Source of the DNA: Octopus vulgaris
Taxonomy: Eukaryota
Assembly (NCBI GenBank): GCA_951406725.2
Contig: OX597828.1
Coordinates: forward strand, 17,918,001 to 17,982,000
Direction: 5' to 3'
DNA length: 64,000 nucleotides
Each line of letters starts with the position of its first letter. Within the stretch, counting starts at the first letter, position 1. The notes under the pieces are model-generated. The model saw only the letters and a list, made by a program, of their open reading frames with translations, did no database searches and had not been told where the DNA came from. Made by a program: the position numbers and the translations under genes. This document shows, in pieces, positions 24,170 to 24,660 of the stretch.

Positions 24170-24660
24170 TATTAATTAAGGGTAGAAATTGATATTTATC
24201 AATTAAGACCAGTGGTCTAGCATATTAAAAAAGAATCCGAAGATTAAAATATTTATATATACCAATTAAGGACTGAACACGAAAAGTGGACAGTCAACAT
24301 GCTAGATATAGACGTCAAATCGTCATTCACCACAAAAGATTATGTTCTCAGATCAAACTCAACACAAAACCATAGCAATAAACAAGTGAAAAATATACGA
24401 AATAAAATAATTACCCATGTACTAACTTAGTTTCACCTGTTATTTTCCGCAAGGAAAACTGCAGCCATCATCAGCATGGTCCGTTATAAATGTAATTTGC
24501 TGGACTAGATGCAAACACGATACTGAAATATCGCGTGCATGGAGTTCAGCCTATTACATTTGAATATATCTTTCAAATGCCTTTACTTTGGCGCGTTGAA
24601 ACCCGAGGAAACTAGCCTGCAGCTAATAATTAGCAGCAGTTAATTTATCGGTTAGAGAAC
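24170..24660 (-). mobile_element. Non-coding element between (TA)n tracts containing a type I hammerhead; Penelope-like/retrozyme-like
   Basis: About 490 bp of non-microsatellite sequence bounded by TA tracts, with no ORF and a hammerhead inside. Confidence 0.55.
24415..24479 (-). ncRNA. Type I hammerhead ribozyme motif with canonical core
   Basis: CCAUG-CUGAUGA-U-GGCUG(CAG)UUUUCC(UUGC)GGAAAA(UAA)CAGGU-GAAA-CUA(AGU)UAG-UA^CAUGG: 5-bp helix I, extended helix II, 4-bp helix III and a GUA cleavage triplet. Confidence 0.75.

Follow-up and report, generated by a model that had tools for sequence, protein, structure and literature searches.

A solo retrozyme copy in a TA microsatellite of Octopus vulgaris, and family-wide insertion ends that suggest copying by a Penelope-like enzyme

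Does a hammerhead-like motif on the minus strand of Octopus vulgaris contig OX597828.1 reflect chance or a mobile element, and, if an element, by what route does it return to DNA? The motif lies at 24415..24479 of the window, the 64,000-nucleotide stretch analysed here, and has the CUGANGA / GAAA / UH core, the three helices and the open helix I of a type I hammerhead. Helix I pairs CCAUG (24479-24475) with CAUGG (24419-24415); the core consists of CUGAUGA (24474-24468), followed by an extra U (24467), and GAAA (24434-24431). The helix II domain, 32 nt long (24466-24435), has the loop end UUUUCC(UUGC)GGAAAA and carries a G.U closing pair, a G.G mismatch at 24465/24436 and a 2x2 internal loop. 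The near-palindromic helix III, ACUA(AGU)UAGU, is followed by GUA^, placing the predicted cut at 24420/24419. Scanning the window for type I motifs on both strands turned up two matches among 22 CUGANGA sites, this one alone combining a 5-bp helix I with a 3-bp helix III; the minus-strand letters and the scan agree, and bear out the anatomy claimed in a first-pass annotation. Rfam returned no hammerhead at E<=10 in 24180-24660, so the call relies on the motif. Its matches in the element alone were two snoRNA models, judged chance, and across the whole window the 150 matches listed of 249 were microsatellite-driven. The 65-nt motif by itself is of ordinary stability (z -1.4). It shares with known hammerheads an additional nucleotide inserted after A9 and before helix II, a long helix II, a 5-bp helix I and a palindromic helix III suited to dimers, and differs from them in that helix III is present here as 3 bp plus A-U and the 10.1-11.1 pair is G.U where G-C is usual.

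The motif is not a chance occurrence, since its 45-nt core, with the family letter in place, is found exactly at 368 places in the 2.8-Gb, microsatellite-rich host assembly, against none for a reversed control. The first 100 of these core matches fall into 43 loci, from which we extrapolate to roughly 160. The whole element, 24173-24660, has matches of 98-99% at many places (168 matches from the best 38 of 1477 candidates). These belong to a young, ORF-less family of low GC content (33%), whose unit repeats every 505 or 507 bp and whose copies form tandem arrays within (TA)n, up to about eight units long and mostly back to back. Units some hundreds of base pairs long in tandem, one type I hammerhead in each, no coding capacity, GC below 50% and a highly self-paired RNA identify it by structure as a metazoan non-LTR retrozyme with predicted ribozyme activity. 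The self-pairing shows in predicted folds of the unit, with z of -8.3 for the linear window copy and -7.5 for the circular family form, compared with -1.5 and +0.1 for flanking sequence and +0.8 for an autonomous pLTR (25-40 shuffles each). Contigs of independent runs also contain the unit, and loose ends in them lie at the short site defined below. None of the runs with the unit is registered as RNA, though some are guessed to be, and in such contigs a circle and a tandem look alike. Our literature search found no paper on cephalopod retrozymes among those listed, and the words "ribozyme" and "retrozyme" are absent from the accessible main text of an octopus repeat annotation (PMC13282606).

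The window copy is a solo unit on the minus strand (24173..24660, unit positions q1-q488, with q1 at 24660), 99% identical to the best-scoring family copies and three substitutions away from the unit at locus L002. One substitution, at 24436, replaces a family G-C pair of helix II by the G.G mismatch. The exact 45-nt core of the window copy occurs at one place in the genome, so the mismatch is private to it, and all four runs examined at 24436, which carry the family letter, confirm this. The G.G mismatch and G.U closing pair reported in the first-pass annotation are thus both present, but the former is no feature of the family. With the substitution, the hammerhead fold is predicted at -14.9 kcal/mol rather than -19.0. 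Toward its 3' end the copy passes the short-end site, a TA-rich motif (q400-412, 24249..24261, minus strand) where one arm of inverted insertions stops, continues through the tail of about 90 nt that leads to the long-end site (24165..24248, minus strand), and finishes at that long site in a (TA)73 tract, the target microsatellite at 24028..24172. At its 5' junction stand about five copies of a 12-nt AT-rich unit resembling the inter-unit spacer of the family (24661..24719), which may come from slippage or from a pre-existing target. No ORF of at least 44 aa lies within 24173-24660, and with (TA)n at the 3' end the description of an ORF-less, TA-flanked element holds. As a monomer the copy has a single ribozyme, so it cannot by itself release a unit-length RNA; with its helix II weakened as well, it is likely a dead end. 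A damaged solo adds little on its own.

We mapped 60 loci: all 43 behind the first 100 core matches, plus 17 from the best whole-element matches, the latter biased toward long arrays. The main clusters at these loci are inverted in 45 cases, with back-to-back arms whose 3' ends point outward, and single-armed in 15. The 3' ends lie at one or the other of two TA-rich motifs, the short site (q400-412) and, some 90 nt further on, the long site (about q490-499). One short and one long end are paired in 41 of the 45 inverted clusters; the other four have one odd end, and none is long/long. A small short/short inverted cluster at L080, separated off by the clustering, brings the total to 41 of 46. 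By a crude test, TA flanks adjoin 92 of 105 3' ends. The 5' truncations are scattered, with 0/105 at the ribozyme cut (q240-244), which 182 unit passes cross. Run-off at the cut is rejected by the same count; seven truncations fall at q236-252 (p 0.06), several of them at a TAATTA palindrome. Scars at the cut are likewise rejected, variants at q238-246 being present in only 3/176 units, as is simple fold-back as the source of all inverted arms, given junctions symmetric within 10 nt in only 9/45. Long ends in terminal position (L034, L052, L056, L061, L069, L077, L083 and the window copy, at 24170) repeatedly carry the same T>A change, at q491, which possibly marks the priming junction.

Partial tandems, an inverted 5'-truncated copy, a one-sided tail and a bias to (TA)n are hallmarks of Penelope insertions in the accessible text of PMC8557442, and this family has partial tandems, an inverted 5'-truncated arm, a one-sided tail and a microsatellite target. 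Beyond these published marks, the counts show paired use of the short and long sites, with one site for each strand. Two fixed ends, one for each side of an insertion, suggest a Penelope-type enzyme at work, with a single RNA copied from each of the two cut strands of the DNA. A purified Poseidon-type enzyme both cuts and extends the two strands; it starts at a pair of neighbouring internal sites between which the tail lies (PMC11167929, accessible parts), and the two end types of the family match these two start sites. We therefore read the window element as a mutated single-unit copy of a non-LTR retrozyme that is young, non-autonomous and likely copied in trans into TA microsatellites by a Penelope-like reverse transcriptase-endonuclease, and give this reading a probability of about 0.75. 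Arrays would be transcribed, and hammerheads would cut the RNA to unit length, probably as dimers joined through the self-complementary helix III. The enzyme would then nick a (TA)n tract on both strands, and each of the two DNA ends would prime at one of two UA-rich sites on a shared RNA; copying would extend over a variable length in each arm before the arms join head to head. In support of dimers, helix III is predicted to be unpaired in the monomer (P 0.02) and to pair with itself at -8.6 kcal/mol, or -9.0 in a lineage minus one loop base. Against the reading, a competing helix takes up the CUGA core in the predicted lowest-energy fold. Two ribozymes paired through a self-complementary helix III are described for dimeric hammerheads in the accessible part of PMC4209133.

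The same ends and arrays could arise if Penelope mobilises uncut read-through RNA only, the hammerhead being a passenger and arrays enlarging by duplication at the DNA level. Truncations that avoid the cut and passes that run across it are what such a process would leave, and hammerhead mutants had no effect on insertion by the Poseidon enzyme, whose main substrate was uncut RNA (PMC11167929, accessible parts). Staggered shared variants at L066, L082, L060 and L036 also speak for it, and show that arrays do enlarge by later DNA duplication; with unit-length duplication in some arrays, not every tandem unit stems from reverse transcription. We nevertheless consider a passenger hammerhead unlikely. 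Nine locus-private variants at seven loci each cover all units of both arms (counted over 57/60 loci, L084, L042 and L056 being excluded for alignment artefacts), and such variants need a single-unit bottleneck. The motif is also conserved between diverged families, and hammerhead changes that disturb pairing or core are 0/3 among locus-wide changes against 12/15 among single or partly shared ones (p about 0.03, a hand count of small numbers). More improbable still is an origin of the unit as an orphan pLTR, its copies being 5'-truncated insertions of the autonomous Penelope-like element to which it belongs. In length (about 500 nt) as well as in tail and target, the unit agrees with the pLTR of the 781-aa element described below, and retrozymes are reported to come from pLTRs (10.64898/2026.07.22.740005, accessible text). 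However, in 60/60 loci a unit has upstream of it either host sequence or more of the family, as a further unit or an inverted arm; tblastn matches to Penelope proteins in these loci are few, and none is within 1.5 kb of an array; and a fold of z -8 sets the unit apart from the autonomous pLTR. We give hardly any credence to an origin without any RNA step, in which recombination spreads satellite DNA or TA-rich regions are mis-assembled. The TA-rich context and one error-rich arm (L084) are in its favour, but fixed 3' ends with scattered 5' ends on many chromosomes largely refute it by their polarity, and the unit recurs in independent runs with its loose ends at the short site.

For retrozyme copying by a Penelope-like enzyme, the form of the template can be narrowed. 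It runs through the cut site without a seam and would thus be either a re-ligated circle or an uncut multimer; we place the multimer a little above even odds and the circle a little below. A circle explains the single-unit bottleneck simply, as would a homogeneous source array. The 22 multi-unit loci represent 12 haplotypes, and the variants divide into 130 single, 85 locus-wide and 11 partly shared. RNA editing was rejected as their source: single-unit changes are mostly G>A and C>T, and the 23 locus-wide sites, which include seven A>G and five T>C, have no strand bias and uncertain polarity. A tentative extension, which we hold to be possible though rather less than an even bet, is that a Penelope-type RT dimer sits on one closed hammerhead RNA circle, each nicked (TA)n strand primed at its own site some 90 nt apart, with both cDNAs rolling round. 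If true, such twin-primed rolling-circle retrotransposition would be readable directly from genomic insertions. The return of animal retrozymes to the genome by a Penelope-like RT on circular RNA has so far been proposed rather than demonstrated, and the short/long end rule, the lack of stops at the cut and the both-arm variants together offer a direct test of that route; the same family also tests the origin of the Penelope tail and of inverted arms.

Penelope machinery is present in the genome and young. A GIY-YIG search returned many identical-scoring copies of a 781-aa frame that joins RT and GIY-YIG domains and has a Cys-rich linker. We take this element to be Neptune-like (PMC8557442, accessible part). 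One copy, at L165:2030-7266 (G000:C16), has two frames, an upstream one of at most 479 aa and then the 781-aa frame. Copies are about 98% identical, with a pLTR of about 500 nt and a 40-nt tail. Their ends, in (TA)n, are of two types, and both inverted copies (2/2) among the 16 fetched are long/short. Its pLTR is unrelated to the retrozyme unit and has no canonical hammerhead by motif scan; another autonomous Penelope-like family carries a minimal CCGAAGA hammerhead. The unit has no real match in the 50 GIY-YIG loci fetched of 6136 candidates, the best (E 0.02) lying inside a flanking repeat. As candidate partners, the 781-aa family and the other GIY-YIG families sampled share no pLTR sequence with the unit, and two tail-sharing families have no adjoining ORF. 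Nor is the retrozyme itself an autonomous element with an RT + GIY-YIG ORF between pLTRs, as no ORF is joined to the unit in the 60 loci.

Elements of this kind, non-LTR retrozymes, are already described, and what the family adds is a short/long end pairing that can be counted. It shares with those in the accessible texts of Cervera and de la Pena 2020 (PMC7229834) and Li, Clavereau and Pollet 2026 (10.64898/2026.07.22.740005) ORF-less tandem units that each contain a single type I hammerhead, a low GC content, RNA that pairs strongly with itself, forms ranging from monomer to multimer, and co-existing autonomous Penelope-like elements. Its unit of 505-507 exceeds the 170-400 nt of the former study and lies within the 51-972 bp of the latter. 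It differs in its long helix II with a G.U closing pair, in back-to-back short/long arms within (TA)n, which we did not find described in the accessible parts of either source, and in being known here from DNA, whereas circular RNA is reported for retrozymes there. The accessible text of 10.64898/2026.07.22.740005 also records in vitro cleavage in only 1/9 Xenopus retrozyme dimers, which tells against our reading, and derives retrozymes from pLTRs. With Penelope-like insertions, as far as covered in Craig et al. 2021 (PMC8557442) and Frangieh et al. 2024 (PMC11167929), the family has in common the partial tandems, inverted 5'-truncated copy and one-sided tail, together with two start sites, AT-rich targets and extension of both strands. 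It departs from them in having no ORF, in a tail of about 90 nt rather than 30-40, and in start sites that both resemble the (TA)n target, the site of the Poseidon enzyme being non-homologous (PMC11167929). That each insertion almost strictly combines a short end and a long end was not found stated in the accessible text of PMC8557442 or PMC11167929.

A large ribozyme-retroelement population, as the first-pass annotation had proposed, is supported genome-wide by this family, two older related families and one autonomous Penelope-like family that bears a hammerhead. One older ORF-less family, of about 600 bp (L201, L202, L171-L230), has a helix II of very great length and, as helix III, a CG palindrome; it keeps helix I, the core and UA^CAUGG, shares the long-end tail motif with the 505-507-bp family, and is unrelated to it in the sequences of helices II and III. 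A third related family (L231-L260; 2777 candidates) agrees with the 505-507-bp family at the start of the unit and along part of its tail, and has a similar motif. Within the window, the same annotation had counted hammerhead families near 6 kb and 13 kb besides the present one. The former stands as a minimal hammerhead with a variant core, CCGACGA/CUGACGA (6067 on the plus strand, 6388 on the minus). The latter was not confirmed, its best candidate, at about 13040-13090, being without CUGANGA in 12/12 fetched copies, and for this reason three hammerhead-bearing families within 64 kb are unconfirmed. The 13-kb sequence (12885-13103) is a short TA-flanked repeat with GAAAC-CAAU-GGUA and has 37 genome matches at <=2 mismatches. 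Two opposed copies of the 6-kb repeat, with cores CCGACGA or CCGACAA and (TA)30 between them, occupy 6002-6500, and a third, partial copy lies at 58776-58937. Elsewhere in the window, 400-2400 on the minus strand resembles a decayed LINE reverse transcriptase region, and 40683-41134, 54232-54649 and 55154-55549 hold a SINE-like repeat in partial tandem copies with a period of about 184.
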